A stretch of 64,000 nucleotides of DNA, from assembly GCA_022825265.1 (NCBI GenBank), contig JAJDXE010000015.1:6468-70467 (forward strand), given 5' to 3'. The notes beneath the pieces are model-generated. The model was not told the origin of the DNA. It searched no databases and saw only the letters and a list, made by a program, of their open reading frames with translations. This DNA comes from Dehalococcoidia bacterium (GTDB taxonomy: Bacteria; Chloroflexota; Dehalococcoidia; Bin125). The translations under genes and the position numbers were made by a program. Below, one piece after another: positions 18,358 to 50,109 of the stretch (position 1 is its first letter; each line of letters opens with the position of its first letter).

Positions 18358-19148
18358 GTCAACAGAATCCGCTCACGCCGCCCGAAGTTGGCGAAGGCAA
18401 GATCCAGGGATTCGACCTCACTGACCGGCGGGTGATCGTCTATGGCGCTGAGAAGCCGGTCGCGACGGCAATCGTCGAGGGCCTGCGAGAAGCAGGCGCG
18501 GGTGTCGGCGTGACCAGCGTGAACACCGATGGGACCTCGTTGTTCCGCTTGAAGAAGGCGGGTGGCAACGGGCCGACCGAGGCAGTCGAACTCGGCAACG
18601 GAACCAACGTGCAGGTCGCGACCCGCAAGATCAGCAAGGAACTCGGCGGCGTCGACGCGGCGATCGTGGTTCCCAACCTCTATCACGCCGCCCCGATTCG
18701 CAAGACGCTCGACGCCGACATCCAGCGGGTGCTGATGGGCAATTTGGGCGGGACGTATGCAGCGTTCCGCAGCGCCACCCGAGAGTTTCGAGGACGGCCG
18801 GGTCGGTTAATCGCGGTACTGGACGCCACGGCGGTGAGGGGTTTGACCAACCTCAGCATCTACAGCGCGGCGCACTCTGGCGTGATCGGTCTTGTGCGAG
18901 CGCTGAGCCAGGAGCTGGCGCCAACCGGAACGACGGTCAACGCGATTGTGGTCGGCTGGACCGATTCCACGCCCGGTCGCGGACCATCGGCGGTCGATGA
19001 GAACCTGCTGCTCCGCTTCATCCCCATGCGCCGCTTCGGTGAGGCCGCCGATCCCGCCCCGCTCGCGGTCTACCTGGCCTCGGAAGCGAGCGGCTACATC
19101 ACCGGCCAGGTCATCCAGGTCGACGGCGGGGTGCTCAAGCACCTGTAG
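18354..19148 (+). CDS. SDR-like oxidoreductase (enoyl-ACP reductase-like)
   Basis: Start at MSQQNPL, overlapping the upstream SDR stop (ATGA). Atypical Gly motif VIVYGAEKPVATA and an SDR core. Confidence 0.75.
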   Translation: MSQQNPLTPPEVGEGKIQGFDLTDRRVIVYGAEKPVATAIVEGLREAGAGVGVTSVNTDGTSLFRLKKAGGNGPTEAVELGNGTNVQVATRKISKELGGVDAAIVVPNLYHAAPIRKTLDADIQRVLMGNLGGTYAAFRSATREFRGRPGRLIAVLDATAVRGLTNLSIYSAAHSGVIGLVRALSQELAPTGTTVNAIVVGWTDSTPGRGPSAVDENLLLRFIPMRRFGEAADPAPLAVYLASEASGYITGQVIQVDGGVLKHL

Positions 19149-19175
19149 GGCCGCGTATCCCTTGTCTGCGATACC

Positions 19176-19218
19176 GTGAACACAAAGGAACGGAGATATC
19201 ATTTGTGTTCACGGATAC
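19176..19218. promoter_or_regulatory. perfect 13-bp inverted repeat CCGTGAACACAAA-N15-TTTGTGTTCACGG in an AT-rich spacer upstream of fic (candidate operator or terminator)
   Basis: Seen directly. The flanks carry GATACC on both sides. The surrounding 120 nt are far more AT-rich than the rest of the window. Confidence 0.4.
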
Positions 19219-19274
19219 CAAAGCAAATGATATGAGCTAACCTTTGTCTTCAGGAAGCGGGAGACAACGGATCC

Positions 19275-20486
19275 ATGCGCGGCGCACTTGTCCATCGAGT
19301 CTGGCAGCCCAGGACGGACACCCTCGCGCCGCGACGCTTTCGCCGACCGTGCGACTACGCGGCGTTCATCCCGGACGCGCTCGACGATGTCGCCTTCCGG
19401 CTGCCGGTCGATCTTGCCGCCGATCTGGCGGACGCGGAAGCCACGCTGCAGCGTCTGCAATATCCCGACGATCGGTTGCTCGACCCGCTCACCCATCTGC
19501 TGATGCGCAGCGAGTCGATCGCGTCTTCACGAATCGAAGGCATCCAGCTCGATGCCCGCGCGCTCGCCCGCGCCGAGGCGAGGCGGCGCGTCGGTCGGCG
19601 AGTCGGTTCGCGGGCAAGGGAAGTGATCGGCAACGTCGAGGCGATGCAGCTCGCGATCGGGCGCGCGGCGGCGGTGGAACGACTGGGTCCGCGCGAGTTG
19701 CTCGACATCCACGAGGTGCTCATGCGCGGCCACCTGCGGACGGCGGGGCAGCTGCGCACGGTGCAGAACTGGATCGGCGGCAACGACTACAACCCGTGCG
19801 GCGCCGACTTCGTGCCTCCGCCGCCCGAGCAGGTGCCGGCTCTGATTGAGAACCTGTGCGAGTTCTGCAACTCCGACCAGACGCCGCCGCTGTTTCAGGC
19901 GGCGGTTGCGCACGCGCAGTTCGAGACGATTCACCCCTTTGACGACGGCAACGGACGCACCGGGCGGGCGCTGATCCATATCCTCTTGCGCCGCCGCGGG
20001 CTGGCCCCGCGCGTGACGCCGCCGGTCAGCGTGGCGCTCTCCCACGCCGGGGACGCCTACATCCGAGGACTGACTTCGTACCGCGACGACAACCTCGTAG
20101 AGTGGCTCGGCACACTCGCCGTGGCTGTCCTGAGCAGCGTGGCGCTGGCCGAGCGATATCGGACCTCCGTCGCCGAACTGGCGGCAGACTGGCGGCAGCG
20201 GCTACGCGATCGCGCGAATCCCCGTGCGGACGCCGCCGCCTGGCTCATCCTCGATCAACTTCCCGCTTACCCCGTCCTGAATCGGGCCGACGCAGCGGAG
20301 TTCAGCGGTCGCTCGCTGCCGGCGGTCGATCACGGCCTGCGGCAACTCGAGGCCGCCGGCGTCCTCGTCCCGATTCATGATCAGCCGCCCAGCCGCCGCA
20401 GCTGGGAGCCGTCGGGACTGCTCGATCTGATCATCCGGCTCGACTCACAGCCGACGTTCGGCCGCCGTGTCGGACTAGTCCCCTAG
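19275..20486 (+). CDS. fic: Fic family protein (class II, with N-terminal inhibitory helix motif and C-terminal winged-helix region)
   Basis: Fic core HPFDDGNGRTGRAL. Upstream SSRIEG fits the (S/T)xxxE(G/N) autoinhibitory motif. Confidence 0.9.
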   Translation: MRGALVHRVWQPRTDTLAPRRFRRPCDYAAFIPDALDDVAFRLPVDLAADLADAEATLQRLQYPDDRLLDPLTHLLMRSESIASSRIEGIQLDARALARAEARRRVGRRVGSRAREVIGNVEAMQLAIGRAAAVERLGPRELLDIHEVLMRGHLRTAGQLRTVQNWIGGNDYNPCGADFVPPPPEQVPALIENLCEFCNSDQTPPLFQAAVAHAQFETIHPFDDGNGRTGRALIHILLRRRGLAPRVTPPVSVALSHAGDAYIRGLTSYRDDNLVEWLGTLAVAVLSSVALAERYRTSVAELAADWRQRLRDRANPRADAAAWLILDQLPAYPVLNRADAAEFSGRSLPAVDHGLRQLEAAGVLVPIHDQPPSRRSWEPSGLLDLIIRLDSQPTFGRRVGLVP

Positions 20487-20525
20487 ACTGGCGCTGCCAA
20501 CCTCTACGTTCCAGGAGACCATCCG

Positions 20526-25960: not shown

Positions 25961-26015
25961 CGGCTGCAATCACCCCCAGCGGTTCCCTTAACATCCCCTC
26001 CAGTGGAGGTTCCCC

Positions 26016-27347
26016 ATGGTCCGACTCAGCGAACTGCATCCCGAAGAAGCCCAGCACATGCTCGGGCGCGCCGCGCTCCTGAAGCGAAGCAATTTCGACT
26101 TCGACGCGACCCCCTGGATCACGCCGAAACCGCTGCGCGATTCGCGCATCGCATTGATCTCGACCGCCGCCCTGCATCGACGCGACGATCCCGCCTTCCG
26201 CTTCGGCGACACCGGTTACCGGCTGATCCCCGACGACATCGACCCCGCCGAGCTCGTCCAGTCCCACATCAGCGTCAACTTCGACCGCACCCACTACCAG
26301 CGAGACCTCAACGTCGTCCTGCCCATCGACCGCATGCACGAACTCGCCGATGCCGGGGAGATCGGCGGCGTCTCGCCAGTTCACTTTTCCATCCTCGGAG
26401 CGACCGAGTCGTTCCTCTTCGAGCAGACCGCCGCCGAAATCGCCCGCCGGATGCACGATCTGGAAGTCGACACCGCCATGCTCGTCCCGGTTTGACCGGT
26501 CTGCACGGCCGCCGTCGGCGTCCTCTCGCACTTCCTCCAGCGCAACGGAATCGCCACCACCAGCATCAGCCTGATTCGCGAGCAGTCCGAGGCCGTCCGT
26601 CCGCCGCGGGCGCTCTGGGTGCCGTTCCCGCTCGGCCGTCCGCTCGGCGTAGCCGACAATCCCGAGTTCCAACGGGACGTTCTGCGCAGCGCCCTGCAAC
26701 TGCTCGAGACCGCTACCGAGCCCACCATCGCCGACTACCCGCACGAAGCGCCTGATGGCAACGGCGACGGCGTCTGGGCCTGCGCCATCGAGCTGCCCAC
26801 CCCCGAGATGAGCGAGCTCGAATCCTCGGTCCGGACCGAAGTCGATCTGCTCATGCCTCGCTACCAGGAGGCGCGACGCAGCCGCGGACGAACGACCTTC
26901 GGGATGAGCGGCGCGACCATCGACGAAATCGACAAGGTCGTCTCATTCGCGATCGCCATCGCCGAGGGTTCCGGATTCGAGCAGGTCCCCGCCGTCGCAT
27001 CCGGTCCGAACTGGAGACACAGAATGCCGATCCTCGTCCGCTTCGTCGTCGAGGACCTCCGCGCCCTCTATCAGGAGGCGGTCACCTCCGAAGCCGGCTC
27101 CCAACCCCCGTCCCAGCGAGACATCCACACCTGGATCTTCCAGGAGACCGCGCTCGGCCGTCTGCTCAAGCAGATCGCCCAGCAGATCACCGATCACGAC
27201 GATCCGCGACTCCGCCTGATGCGAGGCTTCATCATCCCCGAAGGCTTCTGGGAAGGAGATCACTCCTTCGGAGGAATCCCCGCCGGCATGACCGCCGACG
27301 AATACGTCCGCAGCATCCGCCCCTACCTGATCGGCGAGAACACCTGA
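26016..27347 (+). CDS. GrdB/PrdB-family (selenoprotein B-like) protein with in-frame TGA at 26493-26495, candidate selenocysteine codon
   Basis: Track ORFs 26016-26495 and 26619-27347 are in the same frame with no other stop between them. The sequence around the TGA (VDTAMLVPV-U-PVCTAAVG...GIATTSI...PRALWVPFPLGRPLG...NPEFQ) follows the conserved PrdB/GrdB pattern with UxxC at the Sec position. GGAGG RBS before the ATG. Confidence 0.6.
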
Positions 27348-32600: not shown

Positions 32601-33995
32601 CGCGTAGAGCTCGTCTTCCCGCCACTCCTCCTCCGACGCCGTCTCCGCCACGATCTGCTGGGCCAGCACCTCGATCGGCGCCTTCGGCTGACAGATCCGG
32701 TCGAGATCGCCGCGTTCCACCGCCCGCACCATCGCCGCGCACTCGATCAGTTCGTCGAGCGCCGTCGGGAACAGCGCCCCGTGCGGAATCAGGCCCAGCG
32801 CGTGACCCGAACGCCCGACACGCTGCAGGAACGTCGCAATCCGGCGCGGCGATCCAATCTGGCAGACCAGGTCGACCGAGCCGATGTCGATGCCCAGCTC
32901 CAGCGATGCCGTCGCCACGACCGCTTTCAGATCGCCGCTCTTCAGCCGCTGCTCCATCACATGCCGCCGCTCCTTGGAGAGCGACCCATGATGCCCCGAG
33001 ACGTGCTCCTTGCCCACCCGGATGCCCAGTTCATGCGCGACACGCTCGGCCAGCGAGCGCCGGTTGACGAAGATCAGCGTCGTACGATGCTGCAGGATCA
33101 GCTCGGCCAGGCGGTCGTAGACCGCGCCCCAGTGCTCATGCGTCGCCAGCGCCTGTAGCGGCGCATCCGTGGTCTCGATCCACAGCTTCAGTTCGCGCCG
33201 GTGGCCGAGGTCGAGAATCCGGCAGGGCAGCGGCCGCGCCGACTCATCCAGCCCGGTCAGGAACGAGGCAATCTCGGTCATCGGCTTTTGCGTCGCCGAG
33301 AGGCCGATCCGCGTCGGCCGCTGCTCGGCCACGTGATCCAGCCGCGCCAGCGTCAGCGACAGGTGCGACCCCCGCTTGTCCCGCACGACCGCATGAATCT
33401 CATCCACAATCACCGTGCGCACTGTGCGCAGGATCTCCCGCGACCGCTTCGCCGTCAGCATCAGGTAGAGCGATTCCGGCGTCGTAATCAGAATCTGCGG
33501 CGGACGCTTGACGATCGCCTGCCGCTCGGCCTGCGTCGTATCGCCGGTCCGCAGACCCATCCGAATCCGCGGCAGCTCAACGCCCCGCTCGTCGGCCAGT
33601 TGCCGGATTTCGGTCAACGGCTCCTCAAGGTTGCGCTGGATGTCGTTCGACAGCGCCTTCAGCGGCGAGATGTACAGAATCCGCACCTCGTCGGGTAGCT
33701 GTCCGCCGTTGCTCTCGCCCTCCCGGATCAGCTCGTCAATCCCGGCCAGGAACGCGGTCAGCGTCTTGCCCGACCCGGTCGGCGCCGCAATCAAACAGTC
33801 CTCCCCGGTCCGAATCGCCGGCCAGCCATCCTCCTGCGCATAAGTCGGCGCGCCAAACCGCCCCAGGAACCAGTCCCGCACGATCGGGTGAAAGCCATCA
33901 AGGACAGAAGCTGAGGCGTTCGTCTGGATCATAGGTTCCGTATCGTAACCGCTTAGCGCATCTTCTTCATTCGCCACTCCGCGGTGGTCGGCCAT
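29604..33995 (-). CDS. lhr: ATP-dependent helicase Lhr (large helicase-related)
   Basis: 1463 aa. DEAD/DEAH helicase core (APTGSGKTLTAF, VDEIHAV) plus a long Lhr-type C-terminal region. The start may be the internal MIQTNAS (33932), since the first 43 nt overlap the RT gene 3' end. Confidence 0.9.
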   Translation of the reverse strand: MADHRGVANEEDALSGYDTEPMIQTNASASVLDGFHPIVRDWFLGRFGAPTYAQEDGWPAIRTGEDCLIAAPTGSGKTLTAFLAGIDELIREGESNGGQLPDEVRILYISPLKALSNDIQRNLEEPLTEIRQLADERGVELPRIRMGLRTGDTTQAERQAIVKRPPQILITTPESLYLMLTAKRSREILRTVRTVIVDEIHAVVRDKRGSHLSLTLARLDHVAEQRPTRIGLSATQKPMTEIASFLTGLDESARPLPCRILDLGHRRELKLWIETTDAPLQALATHEHWGAVYDRLAELILQHRTTLIFVNRRSLAERVAHELGIRVGKEHVSGHHGSLSKERRHVMEQRLKSGDLKAVVATASLELGIDIGSVDLVCQIGSPRRIATFLQRVGRSGHALGLIPHGALFPTALDELIECAAMVRAVERGDLDRICQPKAPIEVLAQQIVAETASEEEWREDELYAMMRRAAPYGELERSAFDETIEMLATGIGEGGGRSNPLLHRDRINGVVKPRRAARMTAILNGGTIPETGDYRVIKEPEGAFIGTVNEDFAIETAAGDIFLLGSTSWRIRRVENKGIVRVEDAHGAPPTIPFWLGEAPGRSIELSAAVGELRRDIGGMADDPESASQYLQRECHMQSIAAEQMVEYLAEAQESLQVMPSDTDVVFERFFDEGGGQQLVVHAPFGSGVNRAWGLALRKRFCVRFDFELQAAANEEGILLSLGPTQSFPLEEAFEYLKADNAEQSLRQAVLYAPFWNTRWRWAATRALAVPRRRGAKEVPPYLQRMIADDLLAAVFPAQVGCQENLAGPLEVPDHPLIAQTMDDCLHEAVDTDALIGVLERVERGEIRLHARDTVTPSGMAQSIININPFGFLDDAPLEERRARAVMTRRTLPNEQRDLGKLDIDAIERVQDEAFPPIRDADELHELLLSVVALRETDLARISPTLADSATPLMFAELREEGRAARAEGPEGTIWFAAEHLESIRQLFPDHAVDPGFSVPESALILPSDREDARLKLVRGHLEISGPIVAEALSRRCGLSAQDCGYGLAQLEAYGEVMRGQFTPTLGEEDAEEYCDRRLLARIHRYTIARLRAEIEPVTVQHYLRFLLRWQHLTPDTRLSGKAGVRAVIEQLQGFEAPAASWERELIALRVGDYREAWLDELCLAGDVAWARLTARSARRAPTKTTPIALALRRDFRSLLMAVRRPAPVPAARGRSAPEPQPDVAEQLHADGGSASQILRLLEERGALFFDELVDGTRRLATDVETGLRELVATGLAHADGFQGLRQLIRPNRKTRRPRYGGGGVFIGEGPAGRWAALPPTMEGPADPIEADELAERVANILLQRYGVVSRELATRESLTIQWRDVLRALRRLEARGEIRGGRFIQGLLGEQFALPAALDQLRAVRRAATTDERITIAASDPCNLVGILIPGQKVASRLGAKLTLVDGVPLEPASSGAAAAD

Positions 33996-35482
33996 GAGCC
34001 TTCATCGATCTGTTTCTCTAGCCAGGACCTGTGGCGTCGCGGATCGGCAAATGAGATCCCTATTCGTTGCTCAAAGGAATGGAGGTACTCGATTTCTCCG
34101 GAGTCGATTGTTTCGCCCCGTACCCGTTCTGGGTCTAGTACATATGCGCCGTATCGTGCCCAGATACGCACTGGTATGCAAGAGCCTGTTCGAGCTAGTC
34201 GAAGCAGGCGAGCGGCCAAGTGACCCCTCTTTTCGCTCAATACAGGAACCTGAGAAATCACGGCGGCTCTTATCAAGGACGCTACTTGCTCTGCGCAGAC
34301 CAGACCCCCGTCGTCCAGATCAGTTGAGGTCTCTATCAGCGTGGCCACTTGTTCGGACGAGGCGTGAGCAGCGAGGAAACCTGAAGCCCTGATGCAGGAA
34401 CCCTCCCAAAGTGCCGGTTCCTCTACCATTCGGTCGACTATCCACTCTGGAAAGAATCCGCCCGTCGGCGCTTTGCTTAGCGTCCCGAAAAGTCGGTTCA
34501 AACGCGATTTATTCGCCTGGCCATCTACCAGTTCGGCTGCCAACTTGAACCACAAGTGCTCTTCGCTGTGAGATTCAATCATCGCGTTGATGTCGCCTTG
34601 GGAGACGCTCGAGCTGAGAAGAAGCTGCCGACCAGACAGTCCGCGCAGCCAAGAACGCACTGTCTTCTCCTCTGACGACGTCAGACCGAGCACACGAAGC
34701 TCCTCAGTTCGAACTGACTGAGCGTGCTCCAACAGAGAGGGGACGCCGTCAACCAAGAATTCATCGTCGCTCCAGCGAAGCGTAGCCAATCCAGGTATCG
34801 CCTCGAGCAACTGGTCGAGCCGAAACAGCACTTGATTGGCCAGCCAGCCGGACATCTCTGCGGTAATTGGTAGCCCGCCTACGCCGGAGTCGATTGCAAT
34901 CTTCTCAAGCAGCATGCGGAGTCCGAAACTGAGTTCCGTGCCGAGGATGGGTCGCAGAGACTCCTCCACGATTCGAGGGCGCACAGACGGATAGAAGCGG
35001 CGAATGTCGGTCTTCAGTACCACCTCTGGTTCCGAGTCGGCGAGACGCAACCTCTCCCGGTTCCAGTCTCCGAACGCTGGGCCAAAAGCCTGGGTCGTCA
35101 GGACGGGGACCTGCGCAGCTTTAGGCTCGTAGAGTTCGAGACGTCCGGAGAAACTCCTTGGACGCTGTCTCTCAACGAGTTGTTCCGCACCTTCGTGCAA
35201 GAGAAGTCGGCCGACCAGTTGCGCTGGCCAAGGCACCAAGACCATCTCACGGCAAGACCGGTCCTCCTTGCGAGCACCCCTTAGTGCGCCCGCGGGGTTT
35301 GCCAAGTACTGTCGTTCAATCAAGAGAGTGAGCGCTTGAGACTTCGGCGCATGGCTAATCAGCCATCGAGCATCGGCAAACTCCAGTGGATCGGGCATGG
35401 GAGCATCTCGTGAACAGAGAGCATCGGTGAGGCCTCGCAGGTTCGCGAGCGTAATGGGTCTGGAGGAATGGATAATGGCCAT
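33953..35482 (-). CDS. standalone reverse transcriptase (Abi/DRT/UG-like; not group II intron-like)
   Basis: RT motifs visible: motif 2 VVLKTDIRRFYPSV, motif 4 GLPITAEMSGWLANQVLFRLD, motif 5 TLRWSDDEFLV (WSDD for YADD), motif 6 LRVLGLTSSEEKT, motif 7 GLSGRQL. About 150-aa N-terminal and about 230-aa helical C-terminal extensions. No maturase or endonuclease domains. The gene and its 155-nt upstream spacer are markedly lower in GC than the flanking genes. Confidence 0.85.
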   Translation of the reverse strand: MAIIHSSRPITLANLRGLTDALCSRDAPMPDPLEFADARWLISHAPKSQALTLLIERQYLANPAGALRGARKEDRSCREMVLVPWPAQLVGRLLLHEGAEQLVERQRPRSFSGRLELYEPKAAQVPVLTTQAFGPAFGDWNRERLRLADSEPEVVLKTDIRRFYPSVRPRIVEESLRPILGTELSFGLRMLLEKIAIDSGVGGLPITAEMSGWLANQVLFRLDQLLEAIPGLATLRWSDDEFLVDGVPSLLEHAQSVRTEELRVLGLTSSEEKTVRSWLRGLSGRQLLLSSSVSQGDINAMIESHSEEHLWFKLAAELVDGQANKSRLNRLFGTLSKAPTGGFFPEWIVDRMVEEPALWEGSCIRASGFLAAHASSEQVATLIETSTDLDDGGLVCAEQVASLIRAAVISQVPVLSEKRGHLAARLLRLARTGSCIPVRIWARYGAYVLDPERVRGETIDSGEIEYLHSFEQRIGISFADPRRHRSWLEKQIDEGSWPTTAEWRMKKMR

Positions 35483-37800: not shown

Positions 37801-38703
37801 CTAAAGGCTGGGAGCCAGCGCTGCGATGAACTCTCGCGTGCGTTGCCGCTCATTGGCATCCACGCCTTCGAACGCCGCGTAGAAGTCGGTCACGCCGATC
37901 TCCTTCCAGCGCAGCAGCTCCTGCTCGATCTCCTCCTCGCTGCCCACAATCGAGACCCCCGCGGGGTCGTCCGCGCCCGATCCCTGGATCACCCGCTGAT
38001 ACGACGGCAACGTGTTGTACATCGCAAACGCCTTGGAAATTCGCTCACGAGTGCCGTCCGGGTCGGCGGTGACGGCGATCGGGACTCCCGCGATCACGCG
38101 AGGATCGGGCCTGCCCTCCGCCTGCGCCGCGCCGCCCATCTCGGGCATCACGACCTCTTCGATCCACTTCGGACCCGCCAGCCAGAGCGCCGTGCCGTCG
38201 GCCAGCCGCCCCGTGATCCGCAACATCTGCGGACCCAGCGCCGCGACCAGCACCGGCGGAGCCTCGCAGTCGTGCAACTCAACCTGCGAGTGGACCTGGA
38301 ACTCCTCGCCCTCGTGATGCACGACCTCGCCCCGCATCAGCGGGACCAGGATCTCCAGGTACTCGCGCATGTGCCGCACCACCTTGCTGAAGTCCAGCCC
38401 CCACGAGTCCGCAATCACGACCTCGTGCGAAAGCCCAAGGCCCAGCGTGAACCGGCCGCCGCAGGCCGCGTTGGTCGCCAACGCCTGCTGAGCCATCGCC
38501 ACCGGATGCCGTGTGTACGTGGGAATGACGTAGGTGCCCAGCTCGATCTCCGACGTCTCCCCTGCCGCCAGGGCGAGCACGGTCATGGCGTCGTGCCCCA
38601 TCGAGGGCAGGAACGCCCCGGCGAAGCCATCGGCCTCGAGCTGTTTGACCGCTTCGATCTTCCCGGCAAGCGTGGTGGCGTTGGGCGGTGCGAGGACGCG
38701 CAT
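37801..38703 (-). CDS. LLM class F420-dependent oxidoreductase
   Basis: Internal start MRVLAPPN with GAGGAG RBS. Luciferase-like TIM barrel (FAGAFLPSMGHD...LGLGLSH). The longer track ORF is an N-terminal over-extension. Confidence 0.85.
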   Translation of the reverse strand: MRVLAPPNATTLAGKIEAVKQLEADGFAGAFLPSMGHDAMTVLALAAGETSEIELGTYVIPTYTRHPVAMAQQALATNAACGGRFTLGLGLSHEVVIADSWGLDFSKVVRHMREYLEILVPLMRGEVVHHEGEEFQVHSQVELHDCEAPPVLVAALGPQMLRITGRLADGTALWLAGPKWIEEVVMPEMGGAAQAEGRPDPRVIAGVPIAVTADPDGTRERISKAFAMYNTLPSYQRVIQGSGADDPAGVSIVGSEEEIEQELLRWKEIGVTDFYAAFEGVDANERQRTREFIAALAPSL

Positions 38704-38815
38704 CGGGAACTCCTCTGAAATCTGTGGCAAATCGATCGGGCTGTTCGCAGTATTGCGCACGCGAGTCGTTAGCCTGCGCGGCGACAATAACTTCCGGAAA
38801 GCAGGAACGACCACC

Positions 38816-39715
38816 ATGGCATCAGCAGAACTCCAGAAAGTCCTCGGACTCATGGCAGAGCGCCCGCTTGGCGCAGGCAATCCCACGCTCGAGGAGATGC
38901 GGGCGGGCATGGAGGCCAGCTCGTTCCCCGTCACCGACGCCGCGACCGTCACACCGGTCGTCGCCAACGGCGTCCCCGGCGAGTGGGTCACGGTGCCTGA
39001 ATCCGACCCCAACCGACGCCTGCTCTACGTCCACGGCGGCGGCTACGTGATCGGCTCGCCGATCACCCACCGACGCCTCTGCGAAGACATCGCCCGCGCA
39101 GGCGGCTGCGCGGTGCTGAACCTCGACTACCGCCTCGCGCCCGAGCATCCCTTCCCGGCCGCCGTCGAGGACGCGATCGAGGGACTCAAGTTCATCCAGT
39201 CCAACGGACCGGACGGAGAGGGAGCAGCCGACTCGACCTTCGTCGCCGGGGACTCGGCCGGAGGCGGACTGACCCTGGCGACGCTGCTGACGGCCCGAGA
39301 ACAGGGCGTAGACCAGCCCAACGCCGCCATCGGCATTTCGGCCTGGACCGACCTCGCGATCACCGGCGAAACGATTCAGACCCGAGCCAAGGCCGACCCG
39401 CTGATCACCGACGCGTCGATGGTGGAGGGCATGGCGACCCAGTACCTCGGCGGCGCCGACGCCGAGAATCCCCTCGCCTCGCCGCTCTACGCCGACTACG
39501 CAGGATTGCCGCCGCTGCTGCTTCAGGTCGGCGACGCCGAGGTCCTGCTCTCGGACACGACCCGGGTGACCGAGAAGGCCCGCGCTGCCGGTGTGGACGT
39601 GGTCGAGGAGGTCTGGGACGAGATGTTCCACGTCTGGCACCAGTTCGCGCCGATGCTGCCCGAGGGCCAGGAGGCCGTCAACCGGATCGGCGAGTTCATC
39701 AACCAGCACGCATAG
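38816..39715 (+). CDS. alpha/beta hydrolase (HSL-family esterase/lipase), paralog 1 of 3
   Basis: HGGGY oxyanion motif, GDSAGG nucleophile elbow, C-terminal His region. Confidence 0.85.
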   Translation: MASAELQKVLGLMAERPLGAGNPTLEEMRAGMEASSFPVTDAATVTPVVANGVPGEWVTVPESDPNRRLLYVHGGGYVIGSPITHRRLCEDIARAGGCAVLNLDYRLAPEHPFPAAVEDAIEGLKFIQSNGPDGEGAADSTFVAGDSAGGGLTLATLLTAREQGVDQPNAAIGISAWTDLAITGETIQTRAKADPLITDASMVEGMATQYLGGADAENPLASPLYADYAGLPPLLLQVGDAEVLLSDTTRVTEKARAAGVDVVEEVWDEMFHVWHQFAPMLPEGQEAVNRIGEFINQHA

Positions 39716-45386: not shown

Positions 45387-46589
45387 ATGGGGGACGACAT
45401 GGCGACTGATGGACGCATGGACTTTGGCATCTTCATGGCGCCGTTTCACCGCGTCGGCGAGAATCCCTCGCTGGCGATCCACCGCGACCTCGAACTGGTC
45501 GAGTGGCTCGATCAACTCGGCTACGACGAAGCCTGGATCGGCGAGCATCACTCCGCCGGCTGGGAACTGATCGCCTCGCCCGAGGTCTTCATCGCAGCTG
45601 CCGCCGAACGAACCAGCAACATCCGCCTCGGAACCGGCGTGGTCTCGCTGCCCTATCACCACCCGTTGATGGTCGTCGACCGGATGATCCAGCTCGACCA
45701 CATGACCCGAGGCCGCGTGATGATGGGCGTCGGACCCGGCGCGCTCTCCTCCGACGCGCGCATGATGGGCATCGACCCGCTCTATCAGCGACAGCGCATG
45801 GACGAGTCGCTGCGGGCGATCCTCGCGCTGCTCAAGCAGGACGGTCCGGTCAACATGAAGACCGACTGGTTCGAGCTAACCGACGCCCGCCTCCAGGTCT
45901 CGCCATACACGAAGCCGCACTTCGAGATGGCCGTCGCCTCGACCGTCTCGCCCGCCGGACGCCAGATGGCCGGCAAGTACGGCATGGGCATGCTCAGCAT
46001 CGGCGTCTACCTGCCCGGCGGACGCTCCAACCTCGAGGGTCAGTGGACCGAGGTCGAGCAGGTCGCCGAGCGCGAAGGAACCGTCGTCGACCGCAACAAG
46101 TGGCGGCTCGTGATCCCGATGTACATCGCCGAGACCCGCGAGCAAGCCTTCAACGAAGCCCGCGAAGGCTGGCGCGCCTGGCAGATCGACTACTTCCGCG
46201 ACACCCTCCAGGCCGTCCTGCCCGGTACAGCCGAAACACCCGAGGGCGCAGTCGAGACCGGCGGCGCAATCATCGGCACGCCCGACGACGCGATCAACGC
46301 CATCGAGATCCTCCAGGAGAACTCGGGCGGCTTCGGCGGCCTGATGATGCTCGCGCACGAGTGGGCCAACCGCGAGGGCATCCGCAAGTCCTACGAGCTC
46401 TTCGCCCGCTACGTCGCGCCGAAGTTCCAAGGCCAGCTCGCATCGGTCGAGGGAACCCAGCAGTGGGTCGCCTCCGGCGGCGGAGCCGTCTCCTTCAGCC
46501 GCAACGACGTCCTCGCCAAGGCCTTCGTCGACGCCGGCCAGGAAGTCCCCGAGTTCCTCCAGGCCCCCGCCGAAGCAGCCTCGGACTGA
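45387..46589 (+). CDS. LLM class flavin-dependent oxidoreductase
   Basis: Luciferase-like monooxygenase pattern (GIFMAPFH...WIGEHH...GTGVVSLPYHHP). Confidence 0.85.
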   Translation: MGDDMATDGRMDFGIFMAPFHRVGENPSLAIHRDLELVEWLDQLGYDEAWIGEHHSAGWELIASPEVFIAAAAERTSNIRLGTGVVSLPYHHPLMVVDRMIQLDHMTRGRVMMGVGPGALSSDARMMGIDPLYQRQRMDESLRAILALLKQDGPVNMKTDWFELTDARLQVSPYTKPHFEMAVASTVSPAGRQMAGKYGMGMLSIGVYLPGGRSNLEGQWTEVEQVAEREGTVVDRNKWRLVIPMYIAETREQAFNEAREGWRAWQIDYFRDTLQAVLPGTAETPEGAVETGGAIIGTPDDAINAIEILQENSGGFGGLMMLAHEWANREGIRKSYELFARYVAPKFQGQLASVEGTQQWVASGGGAVSFSRNDVLAKAFVDAGQEVPEFLQAPAEAASD

Positions 46590-49065: not shown

Positions 49066-50109
49066 ATGCCTTCCGACATCCGACTCGGCGTGCTCGATCA
49101 AATTCCCATCCGCGACGGCGGCACCGCCGCCACCGCGATCTCCGAGACCTTCGAGCTGGCCGAAACTTGCGACCGGCTCGGCTACTCGCGTTACTGGCTG
49201 GCCGAGCATCACAACGCCGGCTCGCTGGCCTGCGCCTCGCCCGAGGTACTGATCCCCCAGGTCGCCTGGCGCACCTCTCAGATCCGCGTCGGCTCGGGCG
49301 GGATCATGCTGCCCCACTACAGCTCGCTCAAAGTGGCCGAGAACTTTCGCACGATGACGACCCAGTTCCCCGGCCGGATCGACCTCGGTGTCGGCCGCGC
49401 CCCCGGCTCCGACGGGCGCACCGCGCGAGCGCTGGTGCATGGACCCGGCGCGCTCGGGATCGACCATTTCCCCGAGCAACTGCTCGACCTGTACGGCTGG
49501 CTGGCCGACGACCTGCCGCCCGACCACCAGTACCGCGAAGTCCGAGCCGCGCCGCCCGGCGCGCCGATGCCCGAGCTCTGGTTGCTCGGCTCCTCGCACT
49601 ACGGCGGGCACGTTGCCGCCGAGCTCGGCTGGTCGCACTGTTTCGCCCACTTCATCTCGCCCGAAGGTGGCGAGCAGGTCGTGCGCAAGTACCGAGAACG
49701 TTTCCAGCCCTCGCCGGTCAGCTCCGAGCCGCGAGCCTCGCTGGGCGTCTCGGTCACCGTCGCCGAGACCGACGAAGAGGCGGAACAGCTCTGCTGGAGC
49801 CGCTGGTGCTGGCGGATCAAGGGCAATCGCGGCGCGCGCGGAGGCATCCCCTCGGTCGAGGAAGCGATGAACTTTCCCTATTCCCAGCCCGAGCTCGACT
49901 ACATCGGCTACATGCAGAACCGCAGCATCCACGGCTCGCCGCAGCGCGTCCGCGAGAAGCTCGAGCAACTGGCCAGGGCCTACGACGTGGACGAGTTCAT
50001 CGCGCTCACGATCACCTACGATTTCGCTGCCCGCATCCGCTCCTACGAACTGCTCGCCGACGTCTTCGAGCTGCCCCGCCCCGAACTCAGTCAAGCGCTG
50101 GCTGACTGA
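49066..50109 (+). CDS. LLM class flavin-dependent oxidoreductase
   Basis: Luciferase-like pattern (YWLAEHH...GGIMLPHYSSLKVAE). Confidence 0.85.
   Translation: MPSDIRLGVLDQIPIRDGGTAATAISETFELAETCDRLGYSRYWLAEHHNAGSLACASPEVLIPQVAWRTSQIRVGSGGIMLPHYSSLKVAENFRTMTTQFPGRIDLGVGRAPGSDGRTARALVHGPGALGIDHFPEQLLDLYGWLADDLPPDHQYREVRAAPPGAPMPELWLLGSSHYGGHVAAELGWSHCFAHFISPEGGEQVVRKYRERFQPSPVSSEPRASLGVSVTVAETDEEAEQLCWSRWCWRIKGNRGARGGIPSVEEAMNFPYSQPELDYIGYMQNRSIHGSPQRVREKLEQLARAYDVDEFIALTITYDFAARIRSYELLADVFELPRPELSQALAD

Follow-up and report, generated by a model that had tools for sequence, protein, structure and literature searches.

A complete, very probably selenocysteine-containing member of the marine 'PrdB' family in a Dehalococcoidia genome

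A stretch of 64,000 nt from a Dehalococcoidia bacterium (assembly GCA_022825265.1, contig JAJDXE010000015.1, positions 6,468-70,467, forward strand), hereafter called the window, carries at 26016-27347 a coding region with an in-frame TGA. The analysis indicates that 26016-27347 is very probably one gene, encoding a stand-alone 443-residue selenoprotein of the GrdB/PrdB superfamily that belongs to the marine family listed as 'PrdB'. The TGA at 26493-26495 is almost certainly decoded as selenocysteine (Sec, U) to give a 443-residue redox enzyme, and the gene product can be described with high confidence as a Sec-containing, stand-alone PrdB-like oxidoreductase. The features of the gene are as follows.

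26016-27347, + strand: complete selenoprotein gene of 443 codons, with Sec at codon 160, plus the terminal TGA.
26005-26009, + strand: Shine-Dalgarno-like GGAGG, 6 nt before the ATG at 26016, read from the sequence and putative in function.
26124-26720, + strand: PrdB/GrdB-like alpha/beta domain (aa 37-235), which contains Sec.
26493-26495, + strand: TGA, the Sec codon (U160); TGA in 97/97 complete family genes, with Cys there in the full-length Cys forms.
26502-26504, + strand: TGC for Cys163, the putative resolving cysteine of UxxC, found in every listed family site.
26507-26523, + strand: hairpin within the coding sequence resembling a selenocysteine insertion sequence (SECIS), with arms 26507-26513 and 26517-26523.
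26781-26783, + strand: TGC for Cys256 (WxC), the third conserved Cys, in the interdomain linker; putative in role.
26796-27344, + strand: C-terminal domain (aa ~261-443), all-helical and specific to the family, which PrdB and GrdB lack.

After the TGA at 26493-26495, the frame remains free of stops until the TGA at 27345-27347, and the two open reading frames (ORFs) of the mechanical list, 26016-26495 and 26619-27347, lie in one frame. Read-through gives a product of 443 aa, ...MLVPV-U(160)-P-V-C(163)-TAAVGVLSHF..., also written as ...MLVPV-U-PVC-TAAVGVLSHFLQRNGIATTSISLIREQSEAVRPPRALWVPFPLGRPLG...; the residues across the TGA are ...MLVPV-U-PVCTAAVGVLSHFLQR. The coding signature is equal on either side of the TGA, as evident from the GC contents at third (0.84 and 0.83) and second (0.41 and 0.47) codon positions. 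When every TGA on both strands was scanned, this one alone in the 64 kb had a strong coding signature before as well as after it, and neither a paralogue nor any other candidate selenoprotein gene was found in the 64-kb window. An earlier note on this DNA had claimed that the TGA splits one gene into two ORFs of the same frame, and that it falls within a UxxC motif. The former is confirmed by the sequence, the coding signature and the profile matches spanning the TGA, and the latter by U160-P-V-C163 of the read-through product.

The use of the TGA in relatives was compared in 79 loci taken from named genomes, which cover Dehalococcoidia/Chloroflexota metagenome-assembled genomes (MAGs), Acidimicrobiales and other Actinomycetota, and Gammaproteobacteria (Pseudomonadales, Azotimanducaceae and the K189A clade). 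At the Sec column, TGA is read in 97 of 97 complete family genes from three phyla, down to ~45% protein identity; these comprise orthologues as well as paralogues, those in tandem included, and neither another stop (TAA or TAG) nor a sense codon occurs there. The terminal stops of the same family genes, in contrast, vary freely among the three codons (43 TGA, 39 TAG and 17 TAA). Furthermore, the motif P-x-C-[TS]-x-x-V/A-G... right after the TGA is kept in every site listed. The codon in orthologues, for which the earlier note had named TGA and TGC as the states to look for, is thus TGA throughout the 97 genes and TGC or TGT (Cys) in rare homologues.

If the TGA were a real stop, the locus would give two proteins (159 aa and ~242-275 aa), or would represent a pseudogene or an assembly error. 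All public gene calls do split the locus, and public annotation divides the gene in hundreds of entries into a 'selenoprotein B family' protein of ~156-159 aa and a 'hypothetical protein' of ~245-285 aa. The best 120 matches to the N-terminal piece are 144-186 aa long (most 153-159), reach down to 47% identity, and none of them reads through; the N-terminal fragments sampled terminate at ...PV. The best 120 matches to the read-through protein are confined to its C-terminal 51-63% and are 245-291 aa long (most ~275), and a profile of the C-terminal piece collects 1,620 clusters at 50% identity, 278 of them with E <= 1e-30. Among the best 150 of the 1,620 clusters, nearly all start directly after the TGA and two are full length. 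The thermodynamically unremarkable hairpin of the window and the lack of Sec machinery among the window genes, both described below, also speak for termination. However, the invariable use of TGA at this column, never TAA or TAG, while the terminal stops vary, and the strong conservation of P-x-C-T/S... directly after it are at odds with a stop codon. The earliest start codon past the TGA in the window lies at 26619, 41 codons further on, and the called starts of relatives differ in position, which also argues against a separate downstream protein. A pseudogene or an assembly error is contradicted by the recurrence of the TGA in independent assemblies from three phyla. Termination at 26493-26495 is therefore regarded as highly improbable.

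Decoding of the TGA as Sec is further suggested by homologues that carry Cys instead. About 18 full-length homologues (among the best 120 matches) have Cys exactly at the U column, within PV-C-PxC-[TS]R. The joint alignment places Cys at the U column, as CxxC, in 18 of 18 full-length Cys forms, and likewise in P0346; the N-terminal fragments stop one column before this Cys and the C-terminal fragments restart after it. From end to end, the window protein is colinear with P0393, a single-polypeptide Cys form (38% identity, E 2e-86). Another Cys form, P0392, comes from the cultured Falsiroseomonas selenitidurans and is annotated as 'glycine/sarcosine/betaine reductase selenoprotein B family protein'. 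Like the window protein, these Cys forms (P0392 and P0393) stand alone and have the two-domain architecture, with colinearity over 400+ residues at 34-40% identity, and P0393 also shares the third Cys of the window protein. They differ from it in having CxxC rather than UxxC, and are much rarer than the Sec forms (~18 of the best 120 matches, and 2 of the best 150 representatives). That the Cys forms are single polypeptides, and that the alpha/beta domain of the AlphaFold model of P0393 is continuous through the site, is also difficult to reconcile with a real stop.

The UGA might alternatively be read through by near-cognate insertion of Trp or Cys, or under a reassigned code. That Sec insertion in this family is deduced from sequence comparison speaks for such an explanation, but TGA is a normal terminator here. 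It ends 18 of the 55 other genes of the window as well as the selenoprotein gene itself; since those 18 genes end in TGA, the codon is not reassigned in the window. The presence of Cys in a CxxC motif of the homologues is a classic Sec/Cys exchange, a structured element occupies the SECIS position, and a tRNA-Sec gene adjoins the family gene in one genome. Read-through by any means other than Sec insertion thus appears extremely improbable.

This tRNA-Sec (anticodon UCA; locus L049, 6852-6944, - strand) belongs to ARS1012, a gammaproteobacterial MAG of marine origin, where it follows the family gene ~80 nt downstream. The L049 contig terminates just past it. Dehalococcoidia are already known as rich in selenoproteins; in BSepDB, MAGs of this class figure in the top ten of bacteria by number of selenoprotein genes, with counts of 49 and 46 (PMC13326102).

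The structured element at the SECIS position is a hairpin at 26507-26523, whose 5' arm begins 11 nt past the TGA. Its helix is of 6-7 bp, and its loop is GUC, or CGUCG when the closing pair is open, with G26514 and U26515 invariant. An ungapped alignment (A2) of 82 distinct sequences around the TGA has 87.5% of the cells in the arms paired, as compared to no more than 63.4% in slid registers. Double-change cells number 38 against 11.2 +/- 2.7 in shuffled alignments, and none of 500 shuffles reaches 38. RNAalifold independently recovers the same helix with a one-base bulge. The pairing is well illustrated by the wobble base of a Gly codon in the 3' arm and the first base of an Ala/Thr codon, which form G-C in 60, A-U in 20 and G-U in 2 of the 82 sequences, with no mispair; the A-U state is seen in three different sequence contexts. 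The compensatory changes of the hairpin are partly at synonymous sites. When eight orthologues were folded singly, the hairpin was the minimum-energy fold in six, with modest z-scores (-0.45 to -1.9).

Several observations nevertheless weigh against Sec insertion at this TGA and the function proposed for the product. The window copy of the hairpin has a C.U mismatch, and its unconstrained optimum is a competing fold in which the UGA takes part. Single-sequence folds of the window are no better than shuffles, as evident from the z values of 26485-26580 (+1.31) and 26493-26532 (+0.18), and the evidence for a SECIS is weak in any single sequence. The covariation of the hairpin is partly entangled with amino-acid changes, and a paralogue clade behind part of it may represent few independent events. 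Rfam gave no match at gathering thresholds in the whole window, nor at E<=10 in 26300-26800; bacterial SECIS elements within coding regions are probably not covered by any Rfam model. No selA, selB, selD or tRNA-Sec gene lies within the 64-kb window, which contains no tRNA gene of any kind. Lastly, the catalytic scheme and the reductant set out further below are drawn only by analogy with PrdB/GrdB.

When the UGA and the 11 nt after it are kept from pairing, the window sequence folds optimally into the family hairpin (-7.9 kcal/mol). The earlier note had reported no convincing SECIS by eye. This stands for the window copy, which taken alone is unremarkable, and not for the hairpin itself, which exists but is convincing only comparatively, since the copy in the window carries the C.U mismatch. 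The mismatch and the preference for the competing fold also explain why the hairpin could not be folded by eye.

Placement of the protein in the GrdB/PrdB superfamily was examined with hidden Markov models of Pfam and NCBIfam release 20, using the read-through protein with Cys replacing U. The Pfam model GRDB (PF07355) is matched at 27.1 bits, above its gathering cut-off of 22, with aa 87-157 on model positions 274-345 of 347. Since the match runs to position 345 of 347, the GRDB model halts at the Sec column, as one would expect if it had been built largely from TGA-truncated proteins. Precomputed PF07355 matches are found on the N-terminal fragments of relatives. The top NCBIfam match is the PrdB equivalog TIGR04483 (98.4 bits, E 4e-28, cut-off 300), whose alignment places aa 37-235 on model positions 24-223 of 238 and spans U160-P-V-C163. 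The GrdF, GrdH, GrdB and 'various selenoprotein B' models align aa 84-235 with positions ~270-429, all under cut-off; the bit scores and cut-offs of these GrdB-type models are 39.6 and 65.45 for TIGR01918, 39.4 and 602 for TIGR01917, 44.7 and 800 for NF040794, and 40.4 and 775 for NF040795. The superfamily membership claimed in the earlier note is thus upheld by the Pfam match above cut-off and by the alignment of the PrdB model across the TGA column. By curated criteria, the protein belongs to the selenoprotein-B superfamily and is neither PrdB nor GrdB, since all its NCBIfam scores lie below the cut-offs.

When compared to PrdB of Clostridium sticklandii and C. difficile (TIGR04483), the protein shares a homologous alpha/beta domain, with Sec in UxxC at the corresponding place of the model. 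It differs in its length of 443 aa, of which the 238-position model fits only aa 37-235, and in the addition of a helical domain and a third Cys. Moreover, no prdA (encoding the pyruvoyl proprotein), prdC or other prd gene stands beside the family genes in any lineage examined. The likeness to GrdB, GrdF and GrdH is that U160 of the window protein maps to model position ~350, near which the Sec of GrdB presumably lies. Unlike these proteins, it has nothing that matches the GrdB-type models before position ~270; in place of that part it has a short segment at its N-terminus and the helical domain at its C-terminus, and no grdA, grdE, grdC or grdD was seen in the neighbourhoods examined. The motif of the window protein is UxxC, whereas that of GrdB is quoted as UxxCxxC (PMC13188914).

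The protein could, on the other hand, be a genuine PrdB (D-proline reductase) or a GrdB-type subunit of a glycine, sarcosine or betaine reductase, with its partners encoded elsewhere in the genome. TIGR04483 is its top NCBIfam match (E 4e-28), in an alignment that takes in almost all of the model and has UxxC where it is expected; the Joint Genome Institute (JGI) and NCBI label the fragments PrdB or selenoprotein B, and the literature files the family under PrdB. However, scores of 98.4 against a cut-off of 300, and of 39.6 against 65.45 for TIGR01918, fall short of what these assignments call for, and a helical domain of ~180 aa lies outside the 238-position model. The hosts, too, appear to be aerobic heterotrophs of the sea or of sponges, in which luciferase-like oxygenases, TauD and glutathione S-transferases (GSTs) abound, not Stickland fermenters.

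The genomic context bears on the same question. Neighbourhoods were read from precomputed gene calls, about ten of them annotated, in four phyla. The gene in the window and in a syntenic Chloroflexota MAG is neighboured by a TPR-like protein, ClpS, RecQ and an Lhr helicase. The neighbourhoods in Actinomycetota, in distant members and in the carriers of Cys forms are unrelated to that of the window and to each other, and contain ALAD and TetR; SLT, luciferase-like and TauD proteins; GST, TauD and flavin monooxygenase; or a peptide-type ABC transporter, the last two sets being those of the Cys forms. No PrdA, PrdC, GrdA, GrdE, GrdC, GrdD or thioredoxin gene was found in the about ten neighbourhoods or among the annotated genes of the window. 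The description in the earlier note of a window with clpS and recQ as neighbours and no grd, prd, thioredoxin or sel genes therefore holds for the annotated window genes, and its view of a stand-alone gene free of Stickland-type partners agrees with all the neighbourhoods examined. Since no PrdA/GrdE, GrdA or PrdC lies alongside wherever this was examined, the protein is not taken as the B subunit of a D-proline or glycine reductase, and a genuine PrdB or GrdB with remote partners is considered improbable.

The architecture of the stand-alone selenoprotein was deduced from structural models. The full-length AlphaFold model of the Cys form P0393 is one compact two-domain protein, with a predicted local distance difference test (pLDDT) score of 92.1 and a predicted template modelling (pTM) score of 0.92. 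Its alpha/beta domain extends to ~240 and its helical domain begins at ~266; a strand and a helix of the alpha/beta domain flank the Sec-equivalent residue, and this single domain runs through the site. The downstream piece of the window protein, when modelled alone, is all-helical at aa ~261-443 with pLDDT mostly >90, and the orphaned PrdB-like half is disordered. Cys163 is invariant in 21 full-length sequences (A4) and present in 18 of 18 full-length Cys forms, while Cys256 is kept in 47 of the 48 sequences covering its column, Sec and Cys forms alike. A sequence search of the PDB returned no match, and neither domain has a close solved relative.

The family is not new. The earlier note, in presenting an orphan selenoprotein, implied a novelty that goes too far, as the family with Sec at this position is already part of the Sargasso (2005) and Global Ocean Sampling (GOS, 2008) selenoproteomes. 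The Sargasso supplement of Zhang, Fomenko & Gladyshev (2005) lists it as 'Proline reductase PrdB' (PMC1088965), with AACY01068648 as one entry, VPVuPICTGAVGALSNFIERSGVATASISLIREQSEAVRPPRALWVPFPLGRPLG...IPEGY... (PMC1088965 supplement). The window protein matches AACY01068648 with 48% identity (E 2e-86) over 263 residues, which include the Sec motif and the C-terminal domain. The signature PRALWVPF occurs in 6 sequences of the 2005 supplement and 21 of the 2008 GOS supplement (PMC1088965, PMC2398784). Both the marine family and the window protein have UxxC at the same column, then ...ISLIREQSEAVRPPRALWVPFPLGRPLG..., and a long C-terminal domain ending ...IPEGY. Since the two supplements list the Sec together with the C-terminal extension, the selenoprotein status of the family was already known. 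The Sargasso and GOS entries are, however, read-length fragments from surface seawater that were named PrdB by homology, whereas the window gene is a complete copy from Dehalococcoidia; what is new here is this complete family member in a Dehalococcoidia genome.

The Sargasso account ranks 'PrdB' as the third most abundant selenoprotein family, with 42 genes (PMC1088965), and the GOS account gives 235 Sec against 110 Cys forms (PMC2398784). The available portions of these 2005 and 2008 accounts make no remark on the absence of PrdA or on the extra domain (PMC1088965, PMC2398784). In recent reviews the sole entry is 'D-proline reductase, TIGR04483, UxxC', from which the present clade is not set apart, and NCBIfam release 20 gives the family only sub-cut-off PrdB/GrdB matches. 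The name 'Proline reductase PrdB' is probably wrong for the family, in view of the failed PrdB/GrdB cut-offs, the missing partners and the extra domain. The two-domain model, the hairpin and the Cys form in cultured F. selenitidurans now make the function of the marine family testable.

A working scheme for the stand-alone selenoprotein may be drawn as follows. The hairpin at 26507-26523, with GU in its apical loop, would recruit SelB with Sec-tRNA(Sec) at the UGA at 26493, as its comparative conservation suggests, and Sec would be inserted in place of termination. Sec160-x-x-Cys163 would then form a redox pair in the alpha/beta domain, with the helical domain fused to it and Cys256 between the two. 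By analogy with PrdB and GrdB, the selenolate may attack a carbon of the substrate and reductively cleave a C-heteroatom bond, or may reduce an oxidised substrate. Cys163 would resolve the adduct to form a Se-S bond, which a general thiol system (thioredoxin or glutathione) might re-reduce.

A wider proposal, tentative and rather doubtful at present, is that the protein is no subunit of a Stickland-type multi-protein reductase and works by itself, as a single-polypeptide selenoenzyme of aerobic heterotrophs that are marine or sponge-associated. The helical domain and the third Cys would then replace the roles of PrdA, GrdE and GrdA, and the enzyme would reductively cleave an abundant marine small molecule with the aid of thioredoxin or glutathione. 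The substrate could, for example, be an osmolyte (betaine, sarcosine or a proline derivative), an alpha-substituted carboxylate or an electrophile. Were this to hold, a selenoprotein family that ranks among the most abundant of the ocean would have an enzymology of a new kind, and the tandem expansion of paralogues in Dehalococcoidia would be explained. The GST/TauD surroundings of one Cys-form locus, together with TauD and luciferase-like genes near a Sec-form copy, may hint at a glutathione-linked role, or at one in organosulfur or xenobiotic metabolism.

The Cys-form locus in question, L086 (7281-10136), has a glutathione S-transferase gene 28 nt upstream and a TauD-family dioxygenase gene 16 nt downstream, with further GST, MAPEG and DJ-1 genes close by. 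The Sec-form copy near TauD and luciferase-like genes is that of L084 (10939-11949).

Many Dehalococcoidia genomes carry 2-3 selenoprotein paralogues in tandem or within a few kb, whereas the window has one. Such multi-copy loci are L003 (sites 2358, 4579 and 5974), L007, L009, L010, L011, L012, L015-L020, L023 and L026. Every copy at these loci comes with a separate TGA and a hairpin variant of its own, such as GGGUACC-GUC-GGUACCC. Arrays of 2-3 paralogues suggest that the activity matters in the niche of Dehalococcoidia.

The gene content of the window fits an aerobic, organic-matter-degrading member of Dehalococcoidia and not an amino-acid fermenter. Luciferase-like (F420/FMN-dependent) oxidoreductases are encoded at 37801-39009 (- strand), 45387-46586 (+ strand) and 49066-50106 (+ strand), and near them lie genes for two Abhydrolase_3 esterases, a SulP/STAS permease, DUF488 and DUF2332 proteins and two members of the phosphoglucomutase family.

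Comparison with the syntenic MAG locus L001 also revealed differences in gene content. An additional 370-aa gene (L001, 10947-12059), with a faint HSDR_N match, stands there between the selenoprotein gene and recQ; since it is lacking in the window, the locus beside the selenoprotein gene is strain-variable. The window in turn has a 509-aa ORF at 33953-35482 (- strand), on an island of lower GC content (0.53-0.60, as compared to 0.655 for the window) that is missing from L001; only ~100 nt separate the genes for the Lhr helicase and the M20 peptidase there. This ORF has no Pfam match and, at aa ~140-275, weak PADLOC matches to the defence-associated reverse transcriptases RT_UG36 (1.2e-9), RT_UG23 (1.7e-8) and Drt8 (7e-7); its product may represent a divergent reverse transcriptase of the DRT type, carried on an inserted element. 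A 403-aa Fic/DOC protein is encoded at 19275-20483 (+ strand), with matches to the PADLOC defence model SoFic (2.6e-69) and to Pfam Fic and Fic_N, and the surrounding segment (about 19141-20523) represents a second strain-specific insertion, as it has no counterpart in L001.

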